A DNA stretch of 64,000 nucleotides from Gemmatales bacterium (GTDB lineage: Bacteria; Planctomycetota; Planctomycetia; Gemmatales; HRBIN36), in assembly GCA_041640595.1 (NCBI GenBank), contig JBEPZY010000008.1, positions 66,566 through 130,565 of the forward strand. Reading direction: 5' to 3'. Shown here in pieces: positions 18,848 through 63,954 of this stretch; the stretch's first letter is position 1; every line of letters starts with the position of its first letter. The position numbers were made by a program, and so were the translations under genes. The notes under the pieces were generated by a model. It worked only from the letters and a program-made list of their open reading frames with translations, ran no database searches and was not told the origin of the DNA.

Positions 18848-19939
18848 ATGCCAACGCATGGCCATAACGACACGCCAGCAGATGCTTGCACTGAGCGCAT
18901 TGAAGATGAAAAATCACCAGCCGGAGTCTCGGTGAGGCTGAGCAGACTGAAGGTCACCTGGGTTTGGCTCATCCTGGGGTTGCTGCTGAGTGTGGCCGTC
19001 AGCGGTTGCGGGTCGGGTTCTGAAGCTCCAGCTTCCATGCCGCTGGTGGAAGACGGCCAGGTGCGCGTTCCCTGGACGTTTCGCGGCAGTTATCCGATTC
19101 GTGTGGTGTGCACGACGGGAATGGTGGGGGACCTGGTTCGCCACACCGGCGGGGAATGGGTGCAGGTGCACGTGTTGATGGGGCCGGGCGTGGACCCGCA
19201 CCTGTACAAAGCCCGTCCCAATGACGTGGCACTTCTTCAGCGGGCCGATCTTGTCTTTTATTCCGGTCTGCATTTGGAAGGGAAAATGGCGGAGGTTCTG
19301 GAAAATTTGCCGAAGCAAGGGCGCCTGGCGTTTGCGGTGACCGCAGCCCTGTCGCATCACGATTTGCTTGCCGAAGGCGAGCAATTCGATCCGCACGTAT
19401 GGTTTGATGTACGATTGTGGCACAAATGTTTGCTTTTGGTGCGCGATGTGTTTATGCAATATGATCCTCAGCATGCCGAAGATTATCGCCGCAATGCTGA
19501 GGCTTACGGCAAGCGGTTGCTGGATTTAGACCAGTGGGCCCGGGAACAGATCCAGCAAATTCCGCCGAAACAACGCCTGTTAGTGACTGCCCACGATGCC
19601 TTTCGCTATTTTGGCCGGGCTTATGGCATTGAGGTACACGGGATTCAGGGGATCAGTACCGAAAGCGAAGCCAGCACCGTAGAAATAGATGCCCTGGTGG
19701 AGCTGCTGGTAACCCGCAACGTCAAAGCGATTTTTGTCGAAAGCAGTGTCAATCCGCGAAACGTCCAGGCCGTGGTGGAAGGTTGCCGACGCCGCGGACA
19801 TAAGCTTCGCATTGGCGGCGAATTATATTCCGATGCGATGGGCGAATACCGGCCTGGCGTCACTGATGAAGACAACCCGGGCACCTATCTGGGCATGATG
19901 CGCCACAATGTCCGCACGATTGTCGAGGCGTTACGGTGA
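18848..19939 (+). CDS. metal (Zn/Mn-type) ABC transporter substrate-binding lipoprotein, TroA/ZnuA family
   Basis: Lipobox [12 protein letters not shown]. Family motifs [12 protein letters not shown] and [10 protein letters not shown] likely alternative start is the GTG at 18932, after GGAG. Confidence 0.9.
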
Positions 19940-20006
19940 TCCGGCCCGTTGGCAGCGCGGGACCACGCCAGCCGCCAGGAACGAGGTACTAATCGGAGCC
20001 GCTGTC

Positions 20007-20786
20007 ATGCAAGCAAAAGCGAATGGCGAAACCGTGCTGGATGTCCATGACGTTACCGTGGCATACGATCGCCAGCCGGTGCTCTGGGATGTGGACTGGA
20101 CTTTACGGGAACCGGCACTGGTAGCGATTGTCGGGCCGAACGGGGCTGGCAAGAGCACCTTGCTCAAGGCCATCCTCGGACTGGTGCCGCTACTGAGCGG
20201 CGAGGTGCGGCTGTTCGGCCAACCTGTGTCCCGGGTGCGACCCCGTGTCGCTTACGTTCCGCAACGTGAAAGCCTGGATTGGGACTACCCGGCTACTGTG
20301 TTCGACGTCGTGTTGATGGGAACATACGGGCGGCTCGGCTGGTTTCGCCGACCTGGTAAAGCTGAGCGCGACCTGGCGCGGCGCTGTCTGGAACAACTTG
20401 GGCTGAGTGGCCTGGAAAATCGCCAGATCGGAGAACTTTCCGGCGGACAGCAACAACGCTTGTTCCTGGCTCGGGCACTGGCTCAGCAAGCGGAGATCTA
20501 CCTGATGGACGAACCGCTGGCCGGCGTGGATGCGGCGACGGAGCGGGTCTTCTGGACGTTGCTGCAGGAACTTCGCCAGCAGAACCGCACCGTTATTGTC
20601 GTCCATCATGACCTGCGCAGCGTTCCCGAACGTTTCGAGCAGGTGGTGCTCCTGAACACGCGAATCATTGCCAGTGGCCCGACGCAGGAAGTCTTTACGC
20701 CCGAAAACCTGCAACGTACTTATGGCGGTCGGCTGATGATTCTGGAGGAAGCCGGCCAACTTCTGCCCAGGACACGCCGACCATGA
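20007..20786 (+). CDS. metal ABC transporter ATP-binding protein
   Basis: Walker [13 protein letters not shown], signature [15 protein letters not shown], Walker B IYLMDEP. Start trimmed to [10 protein letters not shown]. Confidence 0.93.
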
Positions 20787-21616
20787 GCCACACCCTGCTG
20801 GTCATTTTGGGAACTGCTCTGCTGGGTCTGGCTGCCGGCATTGTTGGTGTTCTGGCCATGCTTCGCCGACAGGCTTTGCTTGGCGACGTGCTTGCCCATG
20901 CCACATTGCCCGGACTGGCCCTGGCTTTTCTGGTAGTTGCGAGCAAGCAAATCGAGGCTCTGCTGCTGGGTGCTATCGTGTCCTGTGTAGCTGCCGCGCT
21001 GACCGTCTGGATACTCGACCGCTGGACGCGACTTAAAGCCGATGCCCGGCTCGGACTCGTACTGGGGGTATTTTTCGGAACGGGCATGGCTGTTTTGGGA
21101 AGTGTGCAGGACGTACCGGGTGGCGGGCAGGCTGGCCTGGAGGCCTACCTTTTCGGCAAACCTGCCGGAATGCTCCAGCGCGATCTCGTTTGGCTGAGCG
21201 TGCTGGCCAGCGTTTGTCTGATGCTTGTCGTTCTGTGTTACAAGGAGTTCCAGCTACTGACTTTCGACGCCGCTTTTGCCCGTGCCCAGGGCTGGCCAGT
21301 GCAATTCCTGGATGTGTTGCTGCTGGGCTTAGTCGTGCTCGTCGTCGTCATCGGACTGCCCGTAGTCGGAGTGGTCATGGTCTCGGCCATGCTGATCCTG
21401 CCGGCAGCCACGGCGCGATTCTGGACGAATCGTTTGCATGTGCTCTTACTGCTGGCGGGAACGCTGGGTGCCAGCATGGGTGTTGTCGGCACGCTGATTA
21501 GCACCCACATTCCGGAATTACCGGCCGGCCCGACCATCATTCTGAGCGGCACGGTCTTTTTTGCACTATCGCTGCTGTTTGGAGCCAAACGTGGTCTTTT
21601 GATTCGCCGACGGTGA
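20783..21616 (+). CDS. metal ABC transporter permease (ZnuB/TroC-like)
   Basis: 277 aa and polytopic. ATGA overlap with the upstream ATPase gene. Confidence 0.92.
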
Positions 21617-27956: not shown

Positions 27957-29168
27957 ATGAGCACAGAAAGCCAGGAAAAATCGGCCTGCTGGCGGCTCCT
28001 CGGTGAACGCACTCGCCGACAACTGGAAGAACTCGATGCCTTGCTGGAACGGATGCTGGCCTTGCCACCCTTCGACCTGCCAGAAGAACAATCTTCAGAC
28101 CCACCCTCGTCCAGCATTCCAGGTTCGTCGCAGAAATTGACCGCAACAGGAACGCCAGGCAACTCGGGGAGCTCGACGAGCAACTCAGGTTCGGCGCAAA
28201 ACCATCCGCAGACCCCAACATCTACCGTCTCACCAGAAAAACCATCTGCGGCATCCGTCTCAGCAGCCCCGCACGCAGGCTCTGCCAACAACACAAAAAT
28301 TGCCGCTGCCGAACCAGCGGAAACCAGCAGCATCGCCCGAAGCAAGCCACCTGCGGAGGCGTTAGCACAAAGCGTCGCCATTTCCGCTGCCGCATCGGCA
28401 GGGGGAACCACTCCTGCTTCAGAACCGCCAGCGGTTTCAGAATCGGCATTGGCGGAGGCAAAGCCTGCTCCGTCCGCAGATGCCGGGATGAAGCCTAGGA
28501 ACGAAACGACCAATTCGGCTGAGCAGGCCCCTGCTGTTACAATCAGTGCATCCGCAAAACGGATCGCCAGCCGACCTGTTTCGGACGGGGAATCGGTCGA
28601 GCGCGTTGCCGAACCGGAGTCGGTCGTTTCCAGAACCGCCACGCCGCGTGAAACCAGAACAGCATCGGCAACGCATTCCTCCGCCAGTGGCACTCGTCCT
28701 GTCAACAATCCAACCCTGGCAGGCCCAAAGCTCCCGGAGTCTTCGACTATTACGCCCGTCGAAAGACACGATTCAGCTGCCCCAGCGATTCGTTCTGCCG
28801 CGGATGATTCCGAATCCAAGGCCAGTGCATCCGTTCACACCGAACCGCCTTTGCAGGCTTCCAGCGAACCCCCGAAAGGTCCCGCCTGGTTACTGCGAGA
28901 GGACACAGGTCCGGGCGATGCCGATGCTGACCGGTCGGTCGCTGACACCAGCAAAGACGCTTCCGGAAGCAACAACGGAGCAAACTCGCTTGACCAGTCA
29001 CAGTCAGGCTTTCGCTGGATCAGGCCGATTGCTGAAAATCTCGCTCAGCCTTTACGCTGGTTGTTCCTGACACCTACCGGCTCGAACGTGCTCGGTTGGA
29101 TTGGCATTCTGCTATTGCTCGGTTCGGCGGCATTCTGGCTCGGAGCCTGGCTGGGCTGGCACTGGTGA
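27957..29168 (+). CDS. tail-anchored Ser/Pro/Ala-rich (predicted disordered) protein
   Basis: SD GGAGGG lies 8 nt upstream of the ATG. Helical N-terminus (RRQLEELDALLERMLALPPF), about 300 aa of low-complexity S/P/A/T, then one C-terminal TM LGWIGILLLLGSAAFWLGAWLGW. Confidence 0.65.
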   Translation: MSTESQEKSACWRLLGERTRRQLEELDALLERMLALPPFDLPEEQSSDPPSSSIPGSSQKLTATGTPGNSGSSTSNSGSAQNHPQTPTSTVSPEKPSAASVSAAPHAGSANNTKIAAAEPAETSSIARSKPPAEALAQSVAISAAASAGGTTPASEPPAVSESALAEAKPAPSADAGMKPRNETTNSAEQAPAVTISASAKRIASRPVSDGESVERVAEPESVVSRTATPRETRTASATHSSASGTRPVNNPTLAGPKLPESSTITPVERHDSAAPAIRSAADDSESKASASVHTEPPLQASSEPPKGPAWLLREDTGPGDADADRSVADTSKDASGSNNGANSLDQSQSGFRWIRPIAENLAQPLRWLFLTPTGSNVLGWIGILLLLGSAAFWLGAWLGWHW

Positions 29169-29470: not shown

Positions 29471-30112
29471 GGGCTATCCGGTGCCATTTTTCAGGGTTTT
29501 CCCGTACTACGGTGCAGTGCGGCTCCGCAAACCGGCAGGGAATATAGTTTCCGCTTCCGGGCTTAGGGTACGTTACCGCAAGCCAGCCAAACCAGCAGAC
29601 GGCACGGCTGTGTTATGCTGTCCAGTGAACGATGCTGGCAGCGCAAGTTGGCCAAGCCGGGTCGTTTACTGGGTAACGCTTGGTGCTCGGATGCAAAACC
29701 ATACTGGCCAGGCGGGCCGGAATACTCCCTGGGAAGCGTCGGACGGGATGTGCTTCTCTCAGGGATGGCCCTGCACGGGCCCGCAGGAGTAGCAGCCCTG
29801 GTCGGAATGGTGGTGAAGCGGGCCATCATTAACGCATTATCCCGACTGGACTAACGGCATTTTGCGGACTATAACGATTGCAATGGATGTGGGGAGATTG
29901 TGTGTCGGGTTGAGGATGGAAGGGACAGCGGGGGATAAGAATTTTCCCCCTCACACCGCTGGTTGTAACTTAGACTACAAAAGCGGGAATAACACCTGCC
30001 GGAACCGCTGGCCAGAAAAGCGACACTAATTTAAGGCAGCCATTCCCGCAAATAGACGGGCGGAGCATATCTGGCCAAACAACCTCCGAAGTTGCTGGAA
30101 AAGGAGAGGAGC

Positions 30113-33100
30113 ATGCTGCGACGGCGAGAAGTCCAACGGGGTGCGGCCCTTGCGGCGACGCTGGTCTTCTGGAGCGTGTTGCACGGCGACCCGGTCAATG
30201 TGCGAAAAGATGAACGCCCAAGTTCACCGCAGCCGACGGACCTGGGCCAGTTTTCTCAGGAAAAGTTGCGCCAAGAGGGGCTGTTGACCTATGAAACGCA
30301 GGATAAGGAAATCCTCTTTGCGCTGAAATTGCGCGTTCGTCTGAACCACACAGTTAACCAGCCGCGAGATTTCGTTGTTTTGTTCGACACCACAGCCAGT
30401 CAGGCAGGTGAAAGCTGGTTGGTGCAGCTGGCCCTGCTCAAGGAGCTTTGCCGGCAAATCAGCGACCAGGATCGCATCCGCGTGATCACTGTCAACACTC
30501 AGCCCGGCGAATTGACGGCGGGTTTCGTTCGCAAGGGCGATCCTGCACTGGAAAAGGCTCTCCAGCAGCTCTCCGACATCACGCCGATGGGTGCCGCCGA
30601 TCTGAAAGCCGCTCTCGACAAGGCCATCGAGAGCCTGGACATTCAGCCTGGCCGTCAGCCGGTGGTGGTGTACATCGGGGACGGCATGAGCAGTTTGCGG
30701 CCCATCGGCGGGCAAGAACGCCTTCGTTATGCTGAAACTTTCAACCGCCTGCGGGTCCCCTTCTATGCCATCCCGATCGGGTTCCGCCTCGACCCTGAAT
30801 TTTTGCACGGCATGACCGGAAGCACCGGCGGGGCCGTATGGCGGGTTGACATCCGTTACAGTGTGCCGGAACTGTGGAAACAATTTTTGCCGCAGCTGGA
30901 AGTGCCCGTGCTGTATCCGATCGAATATCAGTTGCCAGCGGAAGTCGCCGAAGCCTACCCGACGAAATTACCGCCTTTGCGTGCGGACACGTCAACCTTG
31001 ATCGTTGGCCGCCTGCGCCAACTTCCGCAAAAATTCGCCTGGCAAGTCAAGGGTACGGTGCAGGAGCAACCGGTGCAGGTGAGCGGCGAGGAAAAAGTAG
31101 TTCCGCCGGATGTCAGTATGTTCTTCCTCAAGGCGTTGGTAGAACAAGGCCGCAAAGATCGCGAAGCACCCGCGTTGTTACCTGCGGATCGCATGCTGGT
31201 GATGGCCCACAATCAGGTGCGAATGGTACGCGAAGAACTGCTGGCTCAAGGACGTTTGGCCATCCGCATGGATCGGCTTGACCTGGCCCGGCAACTGTTC
31301 GAGCAAGCGCAGCAGCTGGTGCCTCACGACCCGGAAGCCCGAGCCGCCGTCCGTTTGGTCGAACGGTTGCAGCAAGCTCCCGATGCAGCCCAGCGGCGTG
31401 AGCTTCTCGAACGGGGCTTAGCGCAAGCCGGACCAGCAGGCGGCGGTGGAGCCGCAGCCGCACAGCCCAACGCCAAGCCCGACCCGCAAGCCGAGGATTT
31501 ACTGCGCCGTCAGGAGCAGATCATTCGCATCCTCGAGCAGCAACTCAAAAACGACATTGACGAAGCGTTACGGCAGCTGGATCGGCCATTGACAGCGGCA
31601 GAAGCTAACGAGTGGCTGGCGCGGCTGAAACTTTTGACCGAAACCGTCCAGCGCGAAACGCAGATCGGCCCGCAGGTCAGAGAACAATTATTGCAGCGCC
31701 TGGCTGCAGCGATGCGTCAACTTGAGCGCCGATTAGACGAACAACGTCGTCGCGAAGCCGAAGCTCAGGCGCGAGAAATGCAGGCTCAGGAACTGGCTCG
31801 CCGTCAGGAACAGGTACTGGATGAACAGGCCCGCGTGCGGCAACTGATGCAGCAGTTCCATGCCCTGGTGCAGGCGAATCGGCTCATGGAAGCGTATCGC
31901 AAGGGCTTACAGATCGCGCAAGCGACCCCGGGTGAGTCGATCGGTGTGGCGACGTCGAGTCAGGCCTTAGCTTCGCGGTATCTAGGTGAATCCCAACGTC
32001 TGGTTCAGGAACGGCAGGCAAAGTACCTGGCCGCCATGCTGGAAATCGAACGCTCGCATGTGCCCTTCCCGGACGAGCCGCCTATCACGTTTGCTCCTGC
32101 CAGCTTTTACGAAACCAAGATTTTCCGCAACTGGAACGAATTATCACGACACCGTATCAAGCGGTGGCTGGTCAGCTATCTGGGCGAAGCACCATCGGAA
32201 CGTGCTCAGGAAATCGAACGGATGCTGTCGCAACCAAGTCCGCTTCTGGATCGCGACTTCCCCGCTGACACTCCGCTAAACCTGGTTCTGGAAACCATCG
32301 AGAAGAAGCTCAACCTTCCGATCCGCATAGACTTTGAGGCTTTCGGTGAAGAAGCGGCGAAATTTGATCCGCAGCAGATGACGCTCAAAAAGGCTGTGCG
32401 GGTCAGAAATATGTCGCTGGGGATGATCTTGCACGATGCGCTGGCCAGTGTCGAACCCCAGGCCACTTATATCATCCGGCGGGATACCATCGAAATTACC
32501 AGTCCGCAAAAGGCCATCGCTGAAAAGGTTCTTCGCGTGTATCCCGTGCCGGAACTGGTTTTGCCACCGCTATTCGGAGGCAACCCGTTCCAGCTCAACA
32601 CCATGATTTTCGGCTTTGGTTTCCAGATGGGCGTGCCCATGATGATGTGGGGGATGATGATGGGTATGCCTGGCATGATGATGGGCATGCCCGGCATGAT
32701 GATGGGTATGCCTGGCATGATGATGGGTATGCCCGGCATGATGATGGGAATGCCCGGCATGATGATGGGCATGCCTGGCATGATGATGGGGTTCCCCGGC
32801 ATGATGATGATGGGCGGTATGATGATGGGTATGATGATGGGCATGCCCGGCATGATGATGGGAATGCCCGGAATGATGATGGGGTTCCCCGGCATGATGA
32901 TGATGGGTGGCATGATGATGGGCATGATGATGGGTATGCCCGGCATGATGATGATGGGCGGTATGATGATGGGCGGCATGATGATGGGTGGCATGATGAT
33001 GGGTGGTTTGATGGCCATGGGCGGACCTAACCTGTTTGCAACCAATAGCGCGCCCATGCTCATCGAGCTTATCAAGCAAGTCGTTGGCGGGCCGGGCGAC

Positions 33101-34774
33101 TGGTATATTGACCCGATGAACATGATGATGCTGACCATGATGGGCCAGCAGCCGCCACAAGACTACAACCCTCTTCTGGCCAATTACATCGGTTACTATG
33201 ACCCGGCGTTTGCACTGGTGGTAAGGGCGACAGCGCGCCTGCATGAGCGCGAAACCCGCACGTTGACTTTGCCGGCAGCCGCAGGGGGCGGCGGTGCTGC
33301 TGGGGGTATGGGGCAAGCGGGTCATGGGGAACGCCATTTCGCCCACGCCGATATTGTCCGCGACGTCGAGGGAGTCATTGGCGGATTGGTGGGTGCACAG
33401 GCTTTGCGAGGCCGTGGGAAGGTAGTCGCTGCTCAGCTGGATGCAAAGAAGGCCTGGCAGGAGGCTCTGGCACGCAGCGATAAACCGGTGGATGCGGATG
33501 TGCTCTTTGCTGGGGCTGCTGCGCTGGCCGCCAGTGGGCACTGGAATCACGCGGCTGAGTTACTCAAAGCCGGTTTGCGTCAGGGTGGCGTAGCCCGCGA
33601 CTGGATGTTCGAAGCAATCGCCCTGGCTATTCGCATTCAGCACGGCGACCCGGAGGAAGAAGTTCGGTGCCTGCTCTCCGCAGCGGATTTGCGGCCCAGC
33701 GATGCTTTCGGTTTGCTCCAGGGCGCTGAAGTGCTGGCACGGCATGGCAAATACGCCCCGGCTATCTCGCTGACTCGATTGGCTGCTGAGCAAAACCCTG
33801 AATTGCCGCATCCGTACCTGTTCGCCCTGCAACTGGCGAGCAAAGCGAAGGACGTGCCCACGGTACGCTGGGCGGCGATGGAATTGCTCCGCCGCGATTG
33901 GCCCATCCAGTGTGCTGAACTTCACGCTACCGCTCAACGCACGCTCGAAGACCTGGCGGAAGCATTGCGGAAAGAAGGTCGCGCTCCGGATGCCGAAGCG
34001 CTTGCCCTGCCCGCAGCACAAATCCAGCGCCGCGATCTCGTGATTCGGCTGTTGTGGACTGGAAACGCCGATCTCGATCTGGAAATTTCCGAACCCTCCG
34101 GAAGCACCTGTTCCCTCACCCAGCGAGTAACTGCCAACGGTGGCAGTTTGCAAGCTGATTTTGATGCGGAACATCAGACCGAAATCTACAGCGTCGCAGA
34201 AGGTTACTCCGGCGAATATCGCGTGACCGTCAAACCGCGCTGGGGTAAGCCGGTGGCCGGCAAAGCGGTCGTCGAAATCATCACGCATCAGGGCACGCCC
34301 AACGAGCAGATTCGCCGCGAGATGATCACCGTGGCCAGGGAGCCGGTAACCCTGACCGTGCAGCTGCGCGACGGCCGACGCCAGCAACCTGCACCGGTAG
34401 CGCCGCTGGAAGCTTATCGCCTGGGCATTGACCCATTCTATCGGCCGACCTGGCCGGTCCCCGGTGCTGAGATGCTGCGGCAGTTAGCGGTTCCTATCAC
34501 CACGGGTATTGAAATACGTCGCTCGCCGTTCGGCCCGACCAGTATGGCCGATCCTTTGCCGCGACCAGGCGATGACGATAACTCCGGCCCGCAACTTGGG
34601 CCCGGTGGTGCGCCAGGCGTAGTGGTCATACCCGCCGGTGCCCTGGTCAATACGCAAGCTCTGGTCCATAGCGACCGTCGCTACGTTCGCCTTTCCGCAA
34701 ACGTGACCTTCAGTGGCATTACAGGTTTTGTGCCTGTGCCGTTGGCCAGCCTCAGCCCTGGCATACGGCCGTAA
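30113..34774 (+). CDS. giant secreted multidomain protein: signal peptide, vWA, coiled coil, STN-like module, Met/Gly repeat, helical repeats, DUF2135-like beta domain
   Basis: ATG at 30113 preceded by AAGGAGAGGAG (the track starts at TTG 30092). vWA with MIDAS-like DTTAS (30386-30400) and VVVYIGDGMS. About 400 aa of Q/R/E-rich coiled coil. LVIRLLWTGNADLDLEISEPSGSTC...GYSGEYRVTV resembles DUF2135. Confidence 0.9.
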   Translation: MLRRREVQRGAALAATLVFWSVLHGDPVNVRKDERPSSPQPTDLGQFSQEKLRQEGLLTYETQDKEILFALKLRVRLNHTVNQPRDFVVLFDTTASQAGESWLVQLALLKELCRQISDQDRIRVITVNTQPGELTAGFVRKGDPALEKALQQLSDITPMGAADLKAALDKAIESLDIQPGRQPVVVYIGDGMSSLRPIGGQERLRYAETFNRLRVPFYAIPIGFRLDPEFLHGMTGSTGGAVWRVDIRYSVPELWKQFLPQLEVPVLYPIEYQLPAEVAEAYPTKLPPLRADTSTLIVGRLRQLPQKFAWQVKGTVQEQPVQVSGEEKVVPPDVSMFFLKALVEQGRKDREAPALLPADRMLVMAHNQVRMVREELLAQGRLAIRMDRLDLARQLFEQAQQLVPHDPEARAAVRLVERLQQAPDAAQRRELLERGLAQAGPAGGGGAAAAQPNAKPDPQAEDLLRRQEQIIRILEQQLKNDIDEALRQLDRPLTAAEANEWLARLKLLTETVQRETQIGPQVREQLLQRLAAAMRQLERRLDEQRRREAEAQAREMQAQELARRQEQVLDEQARVRQLMQQFHALVQANRLMEAYRKGLQIAQATPGESIGVATSSQALASRYLGESQRLVQERQAKYLAAMLEIERSHVPFPDEPPITFAPASFYETKIFRNWNELSRHRIKRWLVSYLGEAPSERAQEIERMLSQPSPLLDRDFPADTPLNLVLETIEKKLNLPIRIDFEAFGEEAAKFDPQQMTLKKAVRVRNMSLGMILHDALASVEPQATYIIRRDTIEITSPQKAIAEKVLRVYPVPELVLPPLFGGNPFQLNTMIFGFGFQMGVPMMMWGMMMGMPGMMMGMPGMMMGMPGMMMGMPGMMMGMPGMMMGMPGMMMGFPGMMMMGGMMMGMMMGMPGMMMGMPGMMMGFPGMMMMGGMMMGMMMGMPGMMMMGGMMMGGMMMGGMMMGGLMAMGGPNLFATNSAPMLIELIKQVVGGPGDWYIDPMNMMMLTMMGQQPPQDYNPLLANYIGYYDPAFALVVRATARLHERETRTLTLPAAAGGGGAAGGMGQAGHGERHFAHADIVRDVEGVIGGLVGAQALRGRGKVVAAQLDAKKAWQEALARSDKPVDADVLFAGAAALAASGHWNHAAELLKAGLRQGGVARDWMFEAIALAIRIQHGDPEEEVRCLLSAADLRPSDAFGLLQGAEVLARHGKYAPAISLTRLAAEQNPELPHPYLFALQLASKAKDVPTVRWAAMELLRRDWPIQCAELHATAQRTLEDLAEALRKEGRAPDAEALALPAAQIQRRDLVIRLLWTGNADLDLEISEPSGSTCSLTQRVTANGGSLQADFDAEHQTEIYSVAEGYSGEYRVTVKPRWGKPVAGKAVVEIITHQGTPNEQIRREMITVAREPVTLTVQLRDGRRQQPAPVAPLEAYRLGIDPFYRPTWPVPGAEMLRQLAVPITTGIEIRRSPFGPTSMADPLPRPGDDDNSGPQLGPGGAPGVVVIPAGALVNTQALVHSDRRYVRLSANVTFSGITGFVPVPLASLSPGIRP
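32626..33023 (+). repeat. in-frame 21-nt tandem repeat encoding (MPGMMMG)n
   Basis: Units of ATG CCY GGC ATG ATG ATG GGN with synonymous variation. The higher-order pattern ending FPGMMMMGGMMMGMMMG occurs twice. Confidence 0.97.
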
Positions 34775-37200: not shown

Positions 37201-37583
37201 CGGGCTTGCCGCTACGTTGATGCAAGTGGACGTGGGCCCTGACAGGTCCGCATGGGCGATCTCTGCCTTGACAGGTGGGTTTGCGGCTATGCTGATGCAG
37301 GTGATGGCTGCCGGTGTTATCGTCAGGGTACCAGCGACCATTGGCAGCGAGGTTCCCTGCCACGTTGATGCAAACGGTGGCCGTCAGCGTTACCGTGGGG
37401 CGATCGACTGGCGGTTGACAGGCGGGTTTGCCGCTACTTTGATGCAGGTGATGGCTGCCGGTGTTATCGTCAGGGTACCAGCGACCATTGGCAGCGAGGT
37501 TCCCTGCCACGTTGATGCAAACGGTGGCCGTCAGCTTTACCGTGAGGCGATCGACTGGCGGTTGCCAGGCGGGTTTGCGGCTA
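37201..37583. repeat. phased tandem array: ~73.5-bp subunits in a 147-bp dimeric unit
   Basis: GGGYTTGCSGCTA occurs at 37201, 37277, 37424 and 37571. The 147-bp units 37277-37423 and 37424-37570 are nearly identical. Alternate subunits carry GCCACGTTGATGCAAACGG (about 37357 and 37504). The last copy contains the NTPase stop codon (37581-37583). Confidence 0.95.
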
Positions 37584-39731
37584 CTGTTCCGAAGGGAGAC
37601 AGAGCAACCGCAGCAGGGCTTCGCAATGAGTTTGCAAGAAGTCGGCCAGATTGGGCAGCGGCGTTTCCTCGGGCAGAGTCTCGGTGAGAGCGGCGAACCA
37701 GCGCGGGAAGGCGTACAATTGGGCCAGGTCTTCAGCGCCCAGCGGCTCCAATCGCAAACGTTTGCCGCGAGACTGTGCTTCTTCCCACAGGGATTTGCTT
37801 TTGCCCGTCAGGTGCACGTCTTCCGCCGGGCGAAGCAGGACGAGCACATCCATAGCCGGCGGTTCCAAATCTAAAGCGGCGAGTTTGACCTGTAAATCGC
37901 GGAGTTTGCCGGGACCTCGCCCCAAAAACAATCCCACACCGAGCCGCCAGGGCTGACCGTCGCGGCAAGCCCAGTGGGCCAGCGTGAGCACACCGTAGGT
38001 TGGATGATTGCCGAAAGTCCATTCCGGTACCACATGCTGCAACCGCCACGCGCCCACTTTCACGCCGTGCTCCTGACACGCTTGCAAAAACGCACCCAGT
38101 CCGGCCTGCAATTCGCGAGTGGCACCAGTGATGGCACCCTCGGGAGCCAGTCGGATCCGGGCATCGGCTAATGCTTGCTCCCATAGTTTTTCCAGCAATG
38201 CCGCGAGGGAATCGCCCCCCTTGCTGCATTTGCTCCCGTCGGAAGTGTCGGAATGCTGCGGCGATTTTGTTTCCACAGCCTTGAGCACGGTAACTTGTTT
38301 GACCTCCGGTGGAATCGGTTCCGGTGGCGGAACTTCGACGTAGCCGACGTTTCCGGCAGCCCCATCCGCGACTGGCTCGGTTTCCTCGCTGGTTTCCTGC
38401 CCGTACACCAGACGGTCGAACAATCGGCGAAACTGTTGCAGCATGTCGCGCAATGTCGGTTCGGTGCGGGCAATTCGCAACACCTGTTCTTCATTGAACG
38501 GGAAAATCGGTGAAATTTCCGAGCCGAACTGTTCCAAAACTGGCCGCAAGCGCACCACCACCACCTTGCGAACCAGATCGGGCGTCGGTGGATCCAGCCG
38601 CACCGCTGCAACGCTTCCATAACCGGGCAGGTGAAGCGGATGATTGAGGCGATCCTGAATGTACCCGTCCAGGCTCGGCACGAAACGGTTCCAGAGTCCA
38701 CGTTCGGCAAAAATCAAAAAGCAGATGCCATCCACCTGATGCAGCACCTGCACCAGCCCTGCGAAGAAAGACTCGCTCACTTTGTGGCCATCTTCAGTAC
38801 GCCGAACCAGCAGCAGGTCCTCAAGCTGGTCGAAGGCGACCACTACCGGAATCCGCAACGTCAAGCAGATGTCCATAACTGCCCGCAACTGAGCCAGCAC
38901 CAGTTCCTGTCGGCTCGGTTGCACCTGGAAATCCAGTTCGGTGAAGCCGGTGGTCAGGAAATGTGCCAGGTCGTCCTCCTGTCCCAGGAGAATGGCCCGG
39001 GCAAAACCCTGATAAATACGGCGACGCATTTGCCCGGCCACACTGTGAACTTCGTTGCGATCCACAAACTGGCACACCTGTTCGTACACCAAACGCGGGT
39101 CCATCTGCACCTGCAACAGTGCCTGGCGAACCGGCAAAGTGCTGGAACGACCGAGCAGCTGGATCAACCATTGACAACGCTCCTCAGCCTGGGCCTGGCC
39201 CAGCCCTAACCGTCGCGCCCAGCGGGTCAAGGGCGGGGCTGGGAAAAGCTCCAGCCGAGCCGGGGCGTCGAGGGTTTGCAACCAGTTGCGCACCAGGCGT
39301 CGGGTCAGTTCCTCGCCGATATACACCAGCGGACGCACACCACCCTGGCAGGCACCGCTCAGCAAGGTGTCAATCAACTGAAAGAGCAGATATTCGAGAA
39401 AATCGCAACCTTTCTGATAGGTGCTGGGAGTTACCAGCAGCTGGCGACCCCGACCTGGACCGTGTTTGATGGAATGCAACAGATGGGTTTTCCCCGAACC
39501 TTTGTTGCCGAGGATGGGCAAAACTTCCGAATGGCGTCGTCCATCCTGGCGATACAATTCCACCGCGGCCAGAACCATCTCCCGTTCGCGGGCATACAGC
39601 TCCGGAACATGGTAACGGGCACAGAGTTCATCATCGGGATGGCGAGCAAAATAATTGCGAAACGGATTACCGTGTCGCCGCAGGGCTTCCAATGCCCGTT
39701 CGTGCACGTGAGTAGTAAGTGTGGCAGTCAT
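37581..39731 (-). CDS. P-loop NTPase (ORC/AAA_16/STAND-like) with large uncharacterised C-terminal region
   Basis: 716 aa. Walker A GNKGSGKT (39486-39509). Walker B-like VVVAFDQLED (38817-38846), about 220 aa downstream, implying a long helical insertion. No recognisable effector domain. Confidence 0.85.
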   Translation of the reverse strand: MTATLTTHVHERALEALRRHGNPFRNYFARHPDDELCARYHVPELYAREREMVLAAVELYRQDGRRHSEVLPILGNKGSGKTHLLHSIKHGPGRGRQLLVTPSTYQKGCDFLEYLLFQLIDTLLSGACQGGVRPLVYIGEELTRRLVRNWLQTLDAPARLELFPAPPLTRWARRLGLGQAQAEERCQWLIQLLGRSSTLPVRQALLQVQMDPRLVYEQVCQFVDRNEVHSVAGQMRRRIYQGFARAILLGQEDDLAHFLTTGFTELDFQVQPSRQELVLAQLRAVMDICLTLRIPVVVAFDQLEDLLLVRRTEDGHKVSESFFAGLVQVLHQVDGICFLIFAERGLWNRFVPSLDGYIQDRLNHPLHLPGYGSVAAVRLDPPTPDLVRKVVVVRLRPVLEQFGSEISPIFPFNEEQVLRIARTEPTLRDMLQQFRRLFDRLVYGQETSEETEPVADGAAGNVGYVEVPPPEPIPPEVKQVTVLKAVETKSPQHSDTSDGSKCSKGGDSLAALLEKLWEQALADARIRLAPEGAITGATRELQAGLGAFLQACQEHGVKVGAWRLQHVVPEWTFGNHPTYGVLTLAHWACRDGQPWRLGVGLFLGRGPGKLRDLQVKLAALDLEPPAMDVLVLLRPAEDVHLTGKSKSLWEEAQSRGKRLRLEPLGAEDLAQLYAFPRWFAALTETLPEETPLPNLADFLQTHCEALLRLLCLPSEQ

Positions 39732-59384: not shown

Positions 59385-60842
59385 ATGACGTGGACAACTG
59401 CTTCGAGTCCCCTGGTCTCTGCGAAGCCAATAACGATCGAGGAGGTCGGCAGCGTAGCGGTTCCCTCTTCGTATAGTGTACGCAGGAACATTATATCTTC
59501 GAGCCACGACCAGGCATGCTTATCAACAAAGCCAGATGTCGCTCCTGACCTGGAATCGTCTGTGCAGGGGCAACCAGCGGACCAGCGCAGCTGCGCCCTG
59601 GAGCTTCAGGATGCGGTTCGAACCTCGCTACGCTCGGACGGACGCATAGTGCTGCACTTAGATATAGACGCCTTTTTTGCATCCGTCGAGCAGTTAACAG
59701 ATTCCCGATTACGGGGTCGGCCGGTCGCGGTAGGCACAGGCGTGGTAGCCAGCTGCAGTTATGAAGCACGCCAGTGGGGTGTACGCACCGCCATGCGCCT
59801 CAGTGAAGCTCGCCGACTTTGCCCGGAACTAATCGTCGTGCCGGGATATTATCCACGCTATGAAGCGATTGCCCGACAGATATTCGCCTTCTGCCAGCAA
59901 TTTACTCCGCAGATCGAATGTGCCGCTCTCGACGATTTTTATTTAGATTTAGGCGCTGCCGATGTTAGTGAGGGAGAACGTATAGGTCGGCAATTGCGCC
60001 AATGGGTGCGGGAGGTGTTGCGACTAAGTTTATCCATCGGTGCCGGAAGTTGCAAACTGGTTGCGGAAGTAGCCACCCATCAGGCAAAGCCCGGTCGTCA
60101 GGTTCAGGTATTTCCAGGGCGCGAACGTGATTACCTGGCACCCTGGCCAGTGACGATTTTACCAGGCGTCGGACCACAAGCTGCGCGTCAGTTAGTTCGG
60201 CTTGGTCTGCGCTATGTGGGGGAACTGGCGCAGGTTTCCGGGCGATTATTAGCGGGTTTGTTCGGCTGGCGCGGACGATGCTGGCATCTATATGCACAGG
60301 GGATCGATCTTCGGCCCGTCCAGCCGCATCACCAACCGCTAAGTATTAGCAGGCGCACCAGTTTTGCACCACCGGAATCGGATCCGATGTTTCTGCGCGC
60401 CATGTTGATTTATCTGCTGGAGCGTGCAGCAAGCTGGATGCGCTGGCAACAACGGCGCGCTGCTGGCTTAGAAGTCGCAGTGCGCTATGGCGACGGTGTT
60501 AGCCTCGCTAAATCATTTCGCCTCCGACCGCCAACCGATCACGACGCCACATTGCGCCCACTGGCATTAGAAGCTTTGGCTCGCTTATTAGAAAGGCGGC
60601 TCCCTATCCAACTATTAGCGGTTACATTACGGCCCTTAGCTCCTCACGACGGTCAGCTCTGGTTATATGGCGATCCCCAGCAGGAGCGGCAGAATCAATT
60701 GCAGCAATGGAAGGACGCCATCCGGCAGCGGTTCGGCCATTTATCTTTGACCAGCGGTGAGGAATTGCTGCTGCTGCTGCTGCAACGTCTGCCCCACGAT
60801 CGGCACCGCTTGATTTTGCGCACTCCGTGTTTGACACGCTGA
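59385..60842 (+). CDS. Y-family DNA polymerase (DinB/ImuB-like) of a dnaE2 mutagenesis cassette
   Basis: GGAG upstream of the ATG. LHLDIDAFFASVEQ, SYEARQWGVRTAMR and ALDDFYLDL (DD where DinB has DE). About 90-aa N-terminal extension. The stop is 13 nt before dnaE2. Confidence 0.88.
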   Translation: MTWTTASSPLVSAKPITIEEVGSVAVPSSYSVRRNIISSSHDQACLSTKPDVAPDLESSVQGQPADQRSCALELQDAVRTSLRSDGRIVLHLDIDAFFASVEQLTDSRLRGRPVAVGTGVVASCSYEARQWGVRTAMRLSEARRLCPELIVVPGYYPRYEAIARQIFAFCQQFTPQIECAALDDFYLDLGAADVSEGERIGRQLRQWVREVLRLSLSIGAGSCKLVAEVATHQAKPGRQVQVFPGRERDYLAPWPVTILPGVGPQAARQLVRLGLRYVGELAQVSGRLLAGLFGWRGRCWHLYAQGIDLRPVQPHHQPLSISRRTSFAPPESDPMFLRAMLIYLLERAASWMRWQQRRAAGLEVAVRYGDGVSLAKSFRLRPPTDHDATLRPLALEALARLLERRLPIQLLAVTLRPLAPHDGQLWLYGDPQQERQNQLQQWKDAIRQRFGHLSLTSGEELLLLLLQRLPHDRHRLILRTPCLTR

Positions 60843-60855
60843 CTGGAAGCTCGAT

Positions 60856-63800
60856 ATGCCGACGCGCCTGGTCGCCTTACATGTTCATAGCTGGTATTCC
60901 CTGCTGGAGGGCGTGGACTCGCCGCAACGGTTGCTGGAAATGGCCGCTGCGCGGGGCTATATAGCACTGGCGTTTACCGATACTAATAACCTTTACGGTG
61001 TGCCGGCCATTTATGATCTGGCCTGGCAATACGGGGTGCGGCCGATTTTTGGCGCATGTTTGCGTCAACCTGAACCGCAGAATGCTTGCCGGCCTGAAGA
61101 AATGCCGGCCACGGATGCACCGATACAGCCAGTCCGTTGCACGGTCCTGATTTCCGAGCCGGAGGGCTATAGCAACCTATGCACTATATTAAGCCGCCTC
61201 CATGTGCACTCTGATCCACTGCCAGAGTTGCTGCTGGAATATCATGAGGGTTTGCAGGTATTAGTGGATAATCCCCAATGGCTTGCGGCATTGCAACCTG
61301 TATGGCGTGAACGTTTGTGGGCGGAGTTGATTCGACCCGGAAGGTCTATAAAGCAAGAACGGGCATTATTAGAAACAGCAGCAGCCCGAGGCATTCGGGT
61401 TGTAGCCAGTTGGGCGGTTCATTTCGCTGAATCACGGGGCTGGGAGGCGTTTCGCCTGCTTCAGGCGATTCGCTATCGGAAAATGGTAGCTCGTTTGCCC
61501 AAACGCCTAGGGGTCACGCCAGCACATTACCTACTTAGCGCAGCAGAAGTATGGCATCGGTTTGCAGACATCCCTGAAGCCCTGGTACATGCAGAACAAC
61601 TGGCGGAACGCTGTCGCTCCGATGTCTTGCCTCGACAATTAGTCGTACCCGCACCGCCGGAATACTGGTCTGGCCCGGCTTCCCAGCAAGCATGCTTGCA
61701 GCAATTACGGCATCGGTGTCTCCAGGCTCTAAGTCAATATCCTGGCGATCTTGATGAAGCTGACGCTCGGTTACAGGAGGAACTAAACATCATCGAACAG
61801 CGTAACCTGGCCGGTTATTTTCTTGTGGTCCACGAAATCGCCCAGGAAGCCCGGCGCCGAGGTTATCCGATGGCCCTGCGTGGTTCTGCGGGAAATTCGC
61901 TGGTATGTTATCTTCTCGGTATTACCGACATAGACCCGCTCCGTTATCGCCTTCCATTGGCGCGTTTTCTGCATGCGGGTCGAGGCGATTTACCAGATAT
62001 AGACCTGGATTTTGACTGGCGTGTTCGGGACGAAATCATGGCCTGGATGGTGCAGCGCTTCGGGGCAGAACATACAGCACAGGTGAGCTCCCATCTGTTT
62101 TTCCAACCTCGTTCCGCCTTTCGTGAAGCTGCCAAGGCCTATGGTTTATCGAACTCGCAAATATCTCGACTTCTGGTCCGTCTGGAGGCACGCCTGGAAA
62201 GCTTAGTAGATAGACAATCCGAACTGTCCAGTACGCCGACATGGCAATTGTTGTGCCAGGCGGGAAAGGAGCTTCTACCGGAAACCTGCTGGGCACGAAT
62301 ATTAGAAGCGACGCACTGGCTTCTCGGCAGACCCTATCATCTTTCCCTGCATCCCGGTGGTATGGTACTTACACCGGATCCGTTGTGTCGGCATGTACCG
62401 CTGCAACGTGCGCCGAAAGGCGTGATCATGACGCAACTGGATAAAGACGGTGTCGAACGCATTGGCTTAGTGAAAATAGATGTTCTGGGGAATCGGGCTT
62501 TAGCCACCTTGACAGAAGCACGATGTTTAGCCGGTTCGAAGGTGCAAATATCCGAAACTGACGCCGACACTTTACGACTCTTACAGCGAGGCGATACCCT
62601 GGGTGTAAATCAACTGGAATCGCCTGCCATGCGTCATTTACTGGTCCAGTATCAACCCCAGACGCGGGACGATCTAATAAATGTGCTGGCCCTGATTCGC
62701 CCGGCAGCAGCATCTATAGGCAATAAAGAGCTGTTTCTTCGCCGACGGCGTGGCTTAGAACCACCGCCGCCATTGTCCGCACAGTTAGAGCCAATCCTGG
62801 GTGAAACCTGCGGGCTGATGATTTTTGAGGACCAGGCACTTTTGGCGATCCAGGCGGTGACGGGTTGGCCAGCGGCTGAGGCCGATCAGTTACGCAAGGC
62901 CATCAGCAATGGCTTGCCTGCCGACCAGGCCGCTGATTGGTGGCAGCGCTTCGTGCGAGCCTGTCGAGTTCAGGGTGTTAGTCGGGAGATCGCCGAGCAC
63001 ATCTGGACGCAACTGGCCCGTTTCAACGCCTATTCTTTCTGCAAAAGCCACGCGGTGAGCTATGGCTGGCTGGCGTGGGAAGTGGCCTGGTATAAGGCCC
63101 ATTATCCCCTGGCATTCTGGACAGCAGCACTTAATAATAACCTGGGCATGTATCCGCTCTGGCTCTATATCGAGGCTATCAAGTGGTCTAATATACACTT
63201 ATTGCCGCCGTGTGTGAATCGCTCGGATCTAACGTTTCGGATAGATGGCGATGGTATTCGCGTGGGTCTGGGTAATATTCGGGGCGTGCCACGGACTATA
63301 TTGACAGCGATTGTGCGAGAACGTGAGCGGCGGGGGCCATTTACCAGTATCCGTGATCTGTGTCGTCGAGTCCATATCGGGCCGGAAGCATTGGCACAAC
63401 TCATTCAGGCGGGGGCATGCGATTTTGCTGGTCTATCTCGTGAGGAACTGTTCTTGGAGGCCAGCTTGTATTTTCGCCGTTATGATGAAACGGCTATCTT
63501 CGCAGGGCACCTGGAGCATCCACCTCCTTTGTTGCCGTGCATAAATCGGGCCCCGGCTCCAGCAACTAAGCAGAGCCTGGCTGAGGCGGTCAGACAATGG
63601 GAGACGCTTGGTTTTGTTATAGAGGTGCCATTGATGGCCCTGTTCCGGCCATGCTTACCGTCTGGTCTGGCCGATAGCCGAGCCCTGCAGGAACCGCCGG
63701 GTGCGCGCCTGACCCTGGCGGGGCTGGTAGCTGCCAGTCGCATTACCACGACGACGGATGGAAAACCCATGCAGTTTCTTACCCTGGCGGATGAATGGGG

Positions 63801-63954
63801 ATTGGTTGAGGTGACGCTATTCCCCGATATCTGCCCTATCCTGGCGAGTCCTGCACTGGGGCCTTATCTGGTCACCGGACAAATTGAGGAGCATCTAGGT
63901 GCTCGTACATTGAGAGCCATTCAAAGACCGGAACTGTGCATGCAGTGTTCCTGA
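60856..63954 (+). CDS. dnaE2: error-prone DNA polymerase III alpha-like, DnaE2
   Basis: 1032 aa (DnaE2-sized). PHP domain LHVHSWYSLLEGV, polymerase core with ...PDIDLDF... and a C-terminal OB region. Tightly linked to the Y-family gene. Confidence 0.92.
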   Translation: MPTRLVALHVHSWYSLLEGVDSPQRLLEMAAARGYIALAFTDTNNLYGVPAIYDLAWQYGVRPIFGACLRQPEPQNACRPEEMPATDAPIQPVRCTVLISEPEGYSNLCTILSRLHVHSDPLPELLLEYHEGLQVLVDNPQWLAALQPVWRERLWAELIRPGRSIKQERALLETAAARGIRVVASWAVHFAESRGWEAFRLLQAIRYRKMVARLPKRLGVTPAHYLLSAAEVWHRFADIPEALVHAEQLAERCRSDVLPRQLVVPAPPEYWSGPASQQACLQQLRHRCLQALSQYPGDLDEADARLQEELNIIEQRNLAGYFLVVHEIAQEARRRGYPMALRGSAGNSLVCYLLGITDIDPLRYRLPLARFLHAGRGDLPDIDLDFDWRVRDEIMAWMVQRFGAEHTAQVSSHLFFQPRSAFREAAKAYGLSNSQISRLLVRLEARLESLVDRQSELSSTPTWQLLCQAGKELLPETCWARILEATHWLLGRPYHLSLHPGGMVLTPDPLCRHVPLQRAPKGVIMTQLDKDGVERIGLVKIDVLGNRALATLTEARCLAGSKVQISETDADTLRLLQRGDTLGVNQLESPAMRHLLVQYQPQTRDDLINVLALIRPAAASIGNKELFLRRRRGLEPPPPLSAQLEPILGETCGLMIFEDQALLAIQAVTGWPAAEADQLRKAISNGLPADQAADWWQRFVRACRVQGVSREIAEHIWTQLARFNAYSFCKSHAVSYGWLAWEVAWYKAHYPLAFWTAALNNNLGMYPLWLYIEAIKWSNIHLLPPCVNRSDLTFRIDGDGIRVGLGNIRGVPRTILTAIVRERERRGPFTSIRDLCRRVHIGPEALAQLIQAGACDFAGLSREELFLEASLYFRRYDETAIFAGHLEHPPPLLPCINRAPAPATKQSLAEAVRQWETLGFVIEVPLMALFRPCLPSGLADSRALQEPPGARLTLAGLVAASRITTTTDGKPMQFLTLADEWGLVEVTLFPDICPILASPALGPYLVTGQIEEHLGARTLRAIQRPELCMQCS

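Follow-up and report, generated by a model that had tools for sequence, protein, structure and literature searches.

The window analysed here is a 64,000-nt stretch of contig JBEPZY010000008.1 from a Gemmatales bacterium (GCA_041640595.1). On its forward strand lies a gene (30113..34774; a 1553-codon open reading frame (ORF), stop included) for a large protein that combines a von Willebrand factor type A (VWA) domain, an STN-like domain, a low-complexity loop and a beta-sandwich. The core of the loop is a methionine-rich block (32624..33025, + strand; amino acids (aa) 845-978, from QMGVPMMMWG to GGLMAMGG), which is the subject of this study. The ORF-calling tool placed the start on the + strand at a TTG codon, yielding an ORF of 1560 aa (30092..34774), and all protein positions below follow this numbering. 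Judged by the sequence, ATG 30113 is the likelier start, giving 1553 aa, with the Shine-Dalgarno-like AAGGAGAGGAG just upstream. As the initial annotation had stated, the ORF continues in frame through the block, so that translation of the ORF would include it, and a database protein (P0002) is 100% identical to the 1553-aa version. The N-terminus carries a putative Sec signal peptide (30113..30187, + strand) reading MLRRREVQRGAALAATLVFWSVLHG, then D, with an Arg-rich n-region and a hydrophobic core of 14 residues. Hence the protein is probably exported, and the N-termini of its orthologues are alike in form.

The initial annotation had counted about 75 Met in about 133 codons between 32626 and 33023. 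Our count gave 75 Met in 134 codons (56%), together with 40 Gly, 12 Pro, 2 Phe and one each of Gln, Val, Trp, Leu and Ala; the host protein outside the block contains 2.2% Met. There are no charged residues in the block, and His, Cys, Asp and Glu are absent. Tandem Repeats Finder recovered the 21-nt units that had been described (period of 21 nt, 8.7 copies) as well as a period of 93 nt (2.4 copies, 92% match). The latter agrees with a higher-order pattern reported to occur twice, and so does the parse of the peptide: six MPGMMMG units, FPGMMMMGG, MMMG and MMMG are followed by two MPGMMMG units, FPGMMMMGG, MMMG and MMMG, and the block ends with MPGMMMMGG and three MMMGG units. A 32-nt unit-pair pattern in the DNA occurred nine times in the window versus zero times in 100 shuffles. 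We also scanned the DNA of 185,579 species-representative genomes for three MMMG units, which returned 66 loci. With 59 Met in its best 100-residue segment, the block was the densest of the loci in the Met frame, and to our knowledge a natural segment of 134 residues at 56% Met has no precedent.

The eight MPGMMMG units are encoded by seven DNA versions, which differ only at three four-fold-degenerate positions out of 21. In an orthologue of 81% identity, the seven GGFPGMMM units comprise two DNA types with three differences, all of them synonymous. Because the differences between units are synonymous only, these sequences support the view that selection acts on the block peptide.

Of the two labels that the initial annotation gave to the flanking regions, only the VWA label was confirmed. 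The VWA domain (30371..30832, + strand; aa 94-247) matched Pfam VWA_3 with E 1e-12 and 48.8 bits against a cut-off of 27, and in NCBIfam the VWA region of marine_srt_targ with E 2.6e-10. Its DTTAS motif resembles that of a metal ion-dependent adhesion site (MIDAS); the host sequence VVLFDTTASQ presents a DxTxS variant of the MIDAS motif DxSxS. Besides VWA_3, nothing in the host protein rose above noise in Pfam. The proposed DUF2135-like region on the other side found no Pfam match to DUF2135 at E <= 1, either with the whole protein or with 15 aligned C-terminal regions. This C-terminal domain (34049..34396, + strand; aa 1320-1435), in which the motif W.G.AD.DL.V.EP.G..CS is conserved, was confidently modelled by AlphaFold2 as a beta-sandwich, with a predicted local distance difference test (pLDDT) score of 75-94. 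The fold matches were weak and of a generic filamin/Ig-like kind, and sequence matches of the C-terminal region in Pfam and the Protein Data Bank (PDB) were none. The architecture of the family reads signal peptide, VWA, helical region, STN/FecR_C-like module, helical region and beta-sandwich.

The whole low-complexity loop (32561..33055, + strand; aa 824-988, 165 aa) lies between the two halves of the bipartite STN/FecR_C-like module. The first half is an STN/FecR_C-like domain with the secretin N0 fold (32255..32560, + strand) that ends in RVYPVPELV. The second half (33056..33277, + strand) comprises the helix MLIELIKQVVGGPGDW, a second loop and the strands YYDPAFALVVRATARLHE. AlphaFold2 was run on aa 715-1062 with 17 aligned sequences. 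The domain before the loop reached a pLDDT of 85-94, the second half was modelled as a modest helix and two strands at 49-64, and the Met block scored 32-44 without secondary structure. According to the model, the block is a disordered coil. A transmembrane or helical segment was discarded in view of a Gly or Pro every three to four residues and the lack of secondary structure in the AlphaFold2 model.

The best Foldseek matches of the modelled domain in the PDB were the N0 domain of PilQ (4ar0, probability 0.98), the C-terminal cell-surface-signalling domain of PupR (6ovk/6ovm, target TM-score 0.62-0.65), the STN domains of PupA (2a02) and FpvA, and the N0 domain of GspD (3ezj). Their E-values were weak (0.07-0.5). 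On this modelling evidence, the domain before the loop has the N0/STN alpha-beta fold. Pfam FecR_C (PF16344) was detected in 13 of 28 aligned family members and STN (PF07660) in six (best E 8e-6), while the window's own copy matched neither of the two models. Furthermore, some of the proteins retrieved by the family profile pass the Pfam gathering score for STN, with up to 85.9 bits against a cut-off of 28.4. The module thus resembles the STN, FecR_C and secretin N0 domains in fold and, weakly, in sequence. Unlike the module described here, those domains have not been described with a low-complexity loop of 100-200 residues, and the host proteins are neither secretins nor TonB-dependent transducers.

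A search with the domain profile among 1.84 billion proteins yielded 14,636 cluster representatives at 50% identity, 7,153 of them at E <= 1e-10. Many of the proteins bear two to eight tandem copies of the module. The module is sometimes accompanied by BlaR1-type M56 peptidase, LRR, HEAT or SecDF-head domains. With so many cluster representatives, this STN-type module family is very large in planctomycetes, and it appears uncharacterised. Its consensus consists of YxVxDL, a gap with a median of 16 aa (interquartile range 14-23), and LIxLIxxxIxPxxW...LVVxQTxxVHxxIxxLLxxLR, a second half that has no Pfam model of its own. The second half in the window, MLIELIKQVVGGPGDW...ALVVRATARLHE, agrees with the LIxLIxxxIxPxxW...LVVxQTxxVH consensus. 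Because this second half matches and the ordinary gap has a median of 16 aa, the sequence comparison places the Met block in a bipartite STN-type module, where a loop that is ordinarily short has grown about tenfold. The module that holds the loop is of a periplasmic, protein-interaction type. A long Gly-rich loop is rare among the 150 best profile matches, and by its distribution such a loop looks particular to the VWA family.

The second loop of the module contains another small Met patch, DPMNMMMLTMMG (33110..33145, + strand). In a homologue from Singulisphaera (L007, 113-164), PGMMMG/FPGMMMG repeats sit in this second loop; hence, Met enrichment is able to affect either loop of the module. 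Directly after the module follows a short Gly/Ala run, AAGGGGAAGGMGQAGHGE (33278..33331; aa 1063-1080), which is kept in the close clade, and distant orthologues likewise have Gly-rich runs in the region after the module.

A search of 5.8 billion proteins identified 33 homologues of 870-1576 aa. Three of these share 98-100% identity with the host protein, one shares 81%, three share 68-70% ('bacterium HR36' and two Gemmatales metagenome-assembled genomes (MAGs)) and 26 share 25-40%. The 26 distant homologues mostly measure 1300-1576 aa and have uninformative names, some being called 'TPR repeat protein'. We delimited the loop by alignment anchors, from the end of VYPVPELV to the start of MLIELI. 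The comparison of orthologues that the initial annotation had called for gave a clear outcome. All 33 homologues have an uncharged low-complexity loop of about 40-200 residues directly after the conserved (R)VYPVxDLV, and its Met content reaches 25-47% only in the close clade (68-100% identity), against 0-24% outside it. Met amounts to 0-2% in 18 of the 26 distant homologues. Gly makes up 27-67% of the loop across the family.

The window loop consists of 27% Gly, 46% Met and 10% Pro, without any charged residue. Loops in the distant orthologues of 1488-1576 aa are 97-196 aa long, with 28-63% Gly, 0-14% Met, 21-35% hydrophobic residues (M, F, L, I, V, W) and at most 2% charged residues. In a shorter subfamily the loop spans 37-65 aa, with 0-24% Met and up to 11% charged residues. 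Pro is raised to 10-12% in the close clade, and hydrophobic residues account for 56% of the window loop versus 17-35% of the Gly-rich loops. Most lineages have a Gly-rich loop with few hydrophobic residues, and the kind of residue differs between them: GGGGF/GGFGGGL (P0008/9), GGGGL (P0010/11), GGL/GGI/GGA (P0014-16), GQFG (P0017-22) and GGMGM (P0018, P0023-29). In the Gemmatales clade of the window this residue is Met, and its number has grown. From these alignments, the Met block is a lineage-specific compositional variant of a family-wide Gly-rich loop and not a stand-alone domain. The suggestion that it represents an undescribed domain therefore needs qualification: every homologue has the Gly-rich loop of which the block is a variant, and no literature account was found of the VWA family, of its long loop or of Met-rich linkers in Planctomycetes. 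Both the family and the long loop seem not to have been described previously.

Among the loci of the MMMG scan in the Met frame were two orthologues of 29-32% identity (L019 and L056), in which the low-complexity core contains 36-37% Met. These Met-rich loops imply that Met enrichment arose more than once in the family. Thermophily was considered as a cause of the enrichment and was not established. Some of the Met-rich loci come from MAGs with the prefix SMAG in their isolate names (L005, L056), which we take to be soil genomes.

Repeat units varied strongly among close relatives. In the strain group of the window (P0001-P0003 and the P0003 cluster at 90% identity) the loops measure 155-179 aa and are built from (MPGMMMG)n and (AGGFPGMMM)n units. 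The cluster of the 81%-identical relative (P0004) has loops of 131-155 aa made of (GGFPGMMM)n, and the Gemmatales MAGs have GGWPGMMMM and GGFPAMM units. Near-identical strains gain and lose units, and the length of their Met runs differs (MM, MMM or MMMM). The sequences suggest that loop length changes through duplication and deletion of units combined with slippage of ATG triplets. They also indicate that the turnover of units is rapid, whereas the uncharged, Met-rich composition interrupted by Gly and Pro and the approximate length of the loop persist.

This variability would suit a neutral runaway repeat, in which the loop tolerates almost any uncharged flexible sequence and ATG-rich units were expanded by slippage without a benefit from Met. 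Length and unit are hypervariable among near-identical strains, Met runs of two, three and four are as expected of triplet slippage, and the hydrophobic residue (F, L, I, M or Q) varies by lineage in no evident pattern. However, the differences between units are exclusively synonymous in two independent lineages, Met-richness outlasts the replacement of units (MPGMMMG, GGFPGMMM, AGGFPGMMM, GGWPGMMMM) over 68-100% identity, and it arose again in the orthologues of 29-32% identity. We therefore think a purely neutral origin unlikely. Because unit differences are synonymous and the composition is kept despite differing units, selection acts on composition and approximate length rather than on the exact sequence. 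The earlier argument that the peptide is conserved and the block is not merely the product of slippage holds accordingly for selection and fails for the absence of slippage, as strains of at least 90% identity vary in length and unit.

Could the block be an artefact of assembly or annotation, from a collapsed or mis-joined repeat or a wrong frame? The repeat exceeds the length of short reads, and several metagenome versions are frameshifted to an RHDDDG frame or stop within the block (P0187, P0192, P0198, P0007). Since these versions break within the block, the repeat is hard to assemble, genuinely unstable, or both, and short reads give no reliable figure for the exact number of copies. On the other hand, at least 13 independent full-length assemblies (NCBI, JGI, ENA) keep the Met frame between conserved flanks, most units can be told apart by synonymous differences, and the conserved domains on either side fix the frame. 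An artefact is thus very improbable. Public gene calls are often split or frameshifted within the repeat (P0187, P0192, P0198, P0007, P0199-P0206), for example as RHDDDG read-through or as fragments of 600-950 aa on long contigs, so that automated annotation under-reports full-length versions. Three ORFs in the list overlap the block: a His-rich one (32570..33550, - strand), an Ile/Pro-rich one (32467..33138, - strand) and an Asp/His-rich one (32647..33030, + strand). We rejected them as genes and consider them shadow ORFs, by-products of ATG repeats that have no stops in those frames. The Met frame is the coding frame, because the conserved domains on both flanks fix it.

We consider it somewhat more probable than its negation that the Met block is an extreme local form of a conserved disordered loop and acts as a flexible, cohesive tether. 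The role of the loop would then be physical. As a long flexible tether that self-associates via hydrophobic side chains, it would join copies of a scaffold protein in the periplasm or at the surface, or gather them into clusters. With Met in place of Gly, the loop would become much more hydrophobic and more cohesive, oxidation of Met to sulfoxide would switch this cohesion, and some affinity for soft metals would be gained. Tunability by oxidation and soft-metal affinity would be consequences and not the conserved function. Of the three hypotheses in the initial annotation, a cohesive low-complexity spacer fits the results best.

That cohesion would be raised and sensitive to oxidation is suggested by literature on poly-Met, Met-containing elastin-like polypeptides and Pbp1. 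Poly-Met is hydrophobic while its sulfoxide is soluble and disordered, and elastin-like polypeptides with Met show temperature-triggered coacervation, with a transition temperature that shifts upon oxidation of Met (PMC10918826). The window block shares with elastin-like XPGXG sequences the short hydrophobic tandem repeats with Pro-Gly and the predicted coil (M-P-G-M-M-M-G). In contrast to these sequences, its unit is a heptad or nonamer instead of a VPGXG pentamer, and its Met content is much higher. In yeast Pbp1, the condensates formed by the Met-rich low-complexity domain, whose key segment contains MGFPMGG, melt when oxidised (PMC8394241). Pbp1 (ataxin-2) and Pab1 have disordered segments rich in Met, Gly, Pro and Phe (MGFPMGG..., MPGQFMPPM...), and self-association of the Pbp1 type needs reduced Met. 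The window block is likewise predicted to be disordered, Met-enriched and of low complexity. However, Pbp1 and Pab1 are eukaryotic and cytosolic, lack a tandem repeat and are much less dense in Met (8 Met in 35 residues for the key segment), whereas the window block comes from a bacterium and is probably exported.

In composition, the closest natural sequence is abductin, whose Gly/Met-rich domain of consensus GGFGGMGGGX behaves as a random-coil rubber (PMC13052691). Like abductin, the block is an uncharged, repetitive sequence of Gly, Met and Phe, and it is predicted to be random coil; the orthologue loops GGMGMGGMGMGG, GGFGGGLGGFGGGG and GGFPGMMMGG are close to abductin in composition. Yet abductin belongs to the animal extracellular matrix, is dominated by Gly and low in Pro, and has an N-terminal Cys/Tyr region that is thought to cross-link. 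The window block, a loop in a bacterial multidomain protein, has 56% Met, Pro in every unit and no cross-linkers, and there is no homology. The loop lacks Lys, Tyr and Cys, so that cross-linking residues of the elastin (Lys/Ala) or abductin (Tyr/Cys) type are missing and any network would need the flanking domains. Cohesive FG domains, such as those of GLFG nucleoporins, are uncharged, Gly-rich, disordered and self-associating, with hydrophobic residues at regular intervals. Most similar to them are the loops found in distant orthologues (GGGGF, GGFGGGL), but there is no pore context and the window loop contains only 5% Phe. The 'FG-repeat' candidate of Gemmata in the literature is an unrelated protein.

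The initial annotation had also proposed a Cu(I)/Ag(I) sponge in the periplasm or at the surface, in which the 75 thioethers would offer overlapping MxM, MxxM and MxxxM sites to buffer or hand over soft metals. Such clustered motifs are present, trivially so with 75 Met in 134 residues. From the chemistry of the side chain, thioether binding of Cu(I) by the block is physically plausible, as is oxidation of its Met. The Met-rich domain inserted in CueO recruits Cu(I) transiently, and its Cu5 site consists of two Met and two Asp (PMC11494321). Like the CueO insert, the Mets motifs of Ctr1 and the MxxM patches of CusF, PcoC and CopC, the block is a cluster of Met thioethers in a flexible region of an exported protein. 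Elsewhere, MMMG-type repeats are fused to cupredoxin-like domains (P0034 and the thaumarchaeal L018), and several small proteins with MMMGP repeats occur in ammonia-oxidising archaea, which are copper-dependent. One Met-rich orthologue comes from 'bacterium HR36', presumably part of a MAG set from a hot subsurface gold mine or hot spring.

Several results stand against the sponge. We scanned 39 further ORFs across the 64-kb window against Pfam and found none of the copper genes looked for (cop, cus and cue genes, multicopper oxidase, cupredoxin, P-type ATPase, Cus, CopZ). Copper-handling genes were also absent among the called genes of four orthologous loci, so that neither set contains a copA, cus, cueO, copZ or cupredoxin gene. 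Synteny is limited to the 81%-identical relative, while three distant orthologues have unrelated neighbours; without a conserved neighbourhood across orthologues there is no operon clue. As Met amounts to 0-2% of the loop in most distant orthologues, metal binding cannot be its conserved role; the Met ligands are not conserved among orthologues, unlike what is expected of copper-binding Met regions. Known copper-binding Met regions span few residues (about 50 in E. coli CueO), mostly have Asp or His among their ligands, and belong to copper-dedicated proteins or operons. The block shares none of these traits and offers no His, Cys, Asp or Glu as co-ligands. It is a loop of a protein-interaction module in a scaffold-like protein of 1553 aa, not a small chaperone or oxidase. 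A copper sponge is therefore fairly unlikely, and Met-richness alone is poor evidence of copper biology.

The third proposal was a sacrificial buffer of Met sulfoxide. We considered this together with an oxidation-sensing assembly switch as a redox device, like MrpX in the former case and Pbp1 in the latter. In its favour, the protein is probably exported into an oxidising environment, where a predicted disordered chain would expose 75 Met to the solvent. There is also precedent in the control of Pbp1 condensates by Met oxidation (PMC8394241) and in MrpX, a small periplasmic scavenger of hypochlorite with 20% Met and 44% charged residues that is recycled by YedY/MsrP, is stress-induced and is encoded in an operon with yedYZ under the control of a stress sigma factor (PMC4436054). 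MrpX and the window block are both exported, natively unfolded and Met-rich, the latter by prediction. But MrpX is a small, stand-alone and charged peptide, whereas the block is chargeless, sits in a giant multidomain protein and has no Met-sulfoxide-reductase gene (msr, yedYZ/msrPQ) in the 64-kb window. A gene for a DUF255 thioredoxin-domain protein 7 kb away is syntenic in the close relative, and nothing ties it to Met repair. Moreover, the loop is without Met in most orthologues. The sulfoxide buffer finds no support in its context, and we regard a redox device as quite unlikely. Both the copper sponge and the sulfoxide sink rank below a physical tether.

Several points weigh against the cohesive tether. 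The case for cohesion or elasticity draws on composition and analogy only, and the host protein has no characterised homologue that would indicate the tethered partner. A purely physical role leaves unexplained why the clade enriched Met three- to four-fold and not Leu or Phe, the residues used elsewhere. In the AlphaFold2 model, the packing of one module half against the other has low confidence, with a pLDDT of 49-64 for the second half. Lastly, MMMG-type repeats adjoin cupredoxin domains in unrelated proteins (P0034, L018), which implies that a metal role for such repeats exists in nature. It is conceivable, though doubtful, that Met itself was selected, the block being a near-poly-Met envelope polymer, interrupted by Pro and Gly, that is switched by Met redox or by loading with Cu(I)/Ag(I). 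If so, the envelope of a Gemmatales lineage, probably one from hot springs, would contain a scaffold that responds to redox state or to metals. Such a scaffold would parallel, outside the cytoplasm of a bacterium, the redox-sensitive Pbp1 condensate or the engineered elastin-like polypeptides with Met. If instead the cohesive tether is right, the family would be a natural experiment in the evolution of disordered linkers, in which position, chargelessness and approximate length were kept while the hydrophobic residue was swapped (F, L, I, M) and, in a single clade, raised to 56% Met. The MPGMMMG, GGFPGMMM and AGGFPGMMM arrays, together with the Gly-rich orthologues as matched controls, form a natural test set for cohesion, thermal collapse, oxidation switching and soft-metal binding.

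Met-rich repeats outside the VWA family came up in the same searches. With the Met block alone as query of the protein database, P0034 was the only match left after the composition correction of HMMER. A metagenome DNA scan with a repeat pattern that the window itself does not match gave nine loci, mainly repeats in the Asp or His frame and microsatellites. In P0034, (GGMMMG)n precedes, on the N-terminal side, a cupredoxin-like domain with the site CSLHAAMAG; in L018 the order is reversed, with cupredoxin-like YCIVHPWMTG followed by (MMMGDDDS)n. MMMG-type repeats occur in a series of unrelated small exported proteins (P0034, L018, L020, L030, L033, L039, L043, L044, L046), and several proteins of Nitrososphaeraceae consist of a short globular domain and then (MMMGPQQG)n or (MMMGP)n. 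By their sequences, these small exported proteins are better candidates for Cu(I) handling than the window protein. Four proteins of Pirellulaceae (L009, L027, L061, L065; about 490-580 aa) have a signal peptide, then PPGMGGPPGMMMGGPGMMMGGPGMMMGG and then the EF-hand-like DSNGNGSLDPDEM; they form a family of their own, in which the mature N-terminus carries a short Met/Gly/Pro repeat. A Gemmataceae MAG (L005) contains a frame of 315 aa with a low-complexity region of 167 aa (42% Met, 47% Gly; GGMMGMGGGMMGMGG...). This frame had no BLAST similarity to the window protein, and hence Gemmataceae have Met/Gly-rich regions outside the VWA family as well. Finally, proteins of 270-580 aa with (MGMNPMMMG)n and (GMNPMMMG)n repeats were found in gut Firmicutes of the Lachnospiraceae/Clostridia (L015, L034, L050, L062, L049, L052) and in Verrucomicrobiota (L053, L058).

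Rfam, promoter and terminator scans around the host gene returned nothing. Upstream on the + strand, and separated from the VWA gene by about 945 bp of non-coding DNA, lies a gene (27957..29168) for a low-complexity protein of 403 aa that is rich in Ser, Ala, Pro and Thr, ends in a C-terminal hydrophobic helix and has no Pfam match; a counterpart of 374 aa is syntenic in the 81%-identical relative. An ORF of 716 aa on the - strand (37581..39731), with the Walker-A-like GNKGSGKTH and no Pfam match, corresponds to a gene for 714 aa at the matching relative position in the same relative. A Fur-family regulator lies nearby at a syntenic locus (L067). Other genes of the window encode GMP synthase, HPPK, HemD/CobA, DUF1501, SpoVG, Der, a metallo-beta-lactamase-fold protein, DedA/VTT, a glycosyltransferase, the DUF255 thioredoxin-domain protein, Ser/Thr kinases with PP2C and FHA domains, MnmA and riboflavin synthase. 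They also include the zinc transporter ZnuABC (18848..21616), assigned by Pfam, and an error-prone polymerase cassette on the + strand (59385..63954), in which the gene for an ImuB-like Y-family polymerase with IMS domains precedes that for a DnaE2-type Pol III alpha subunit.

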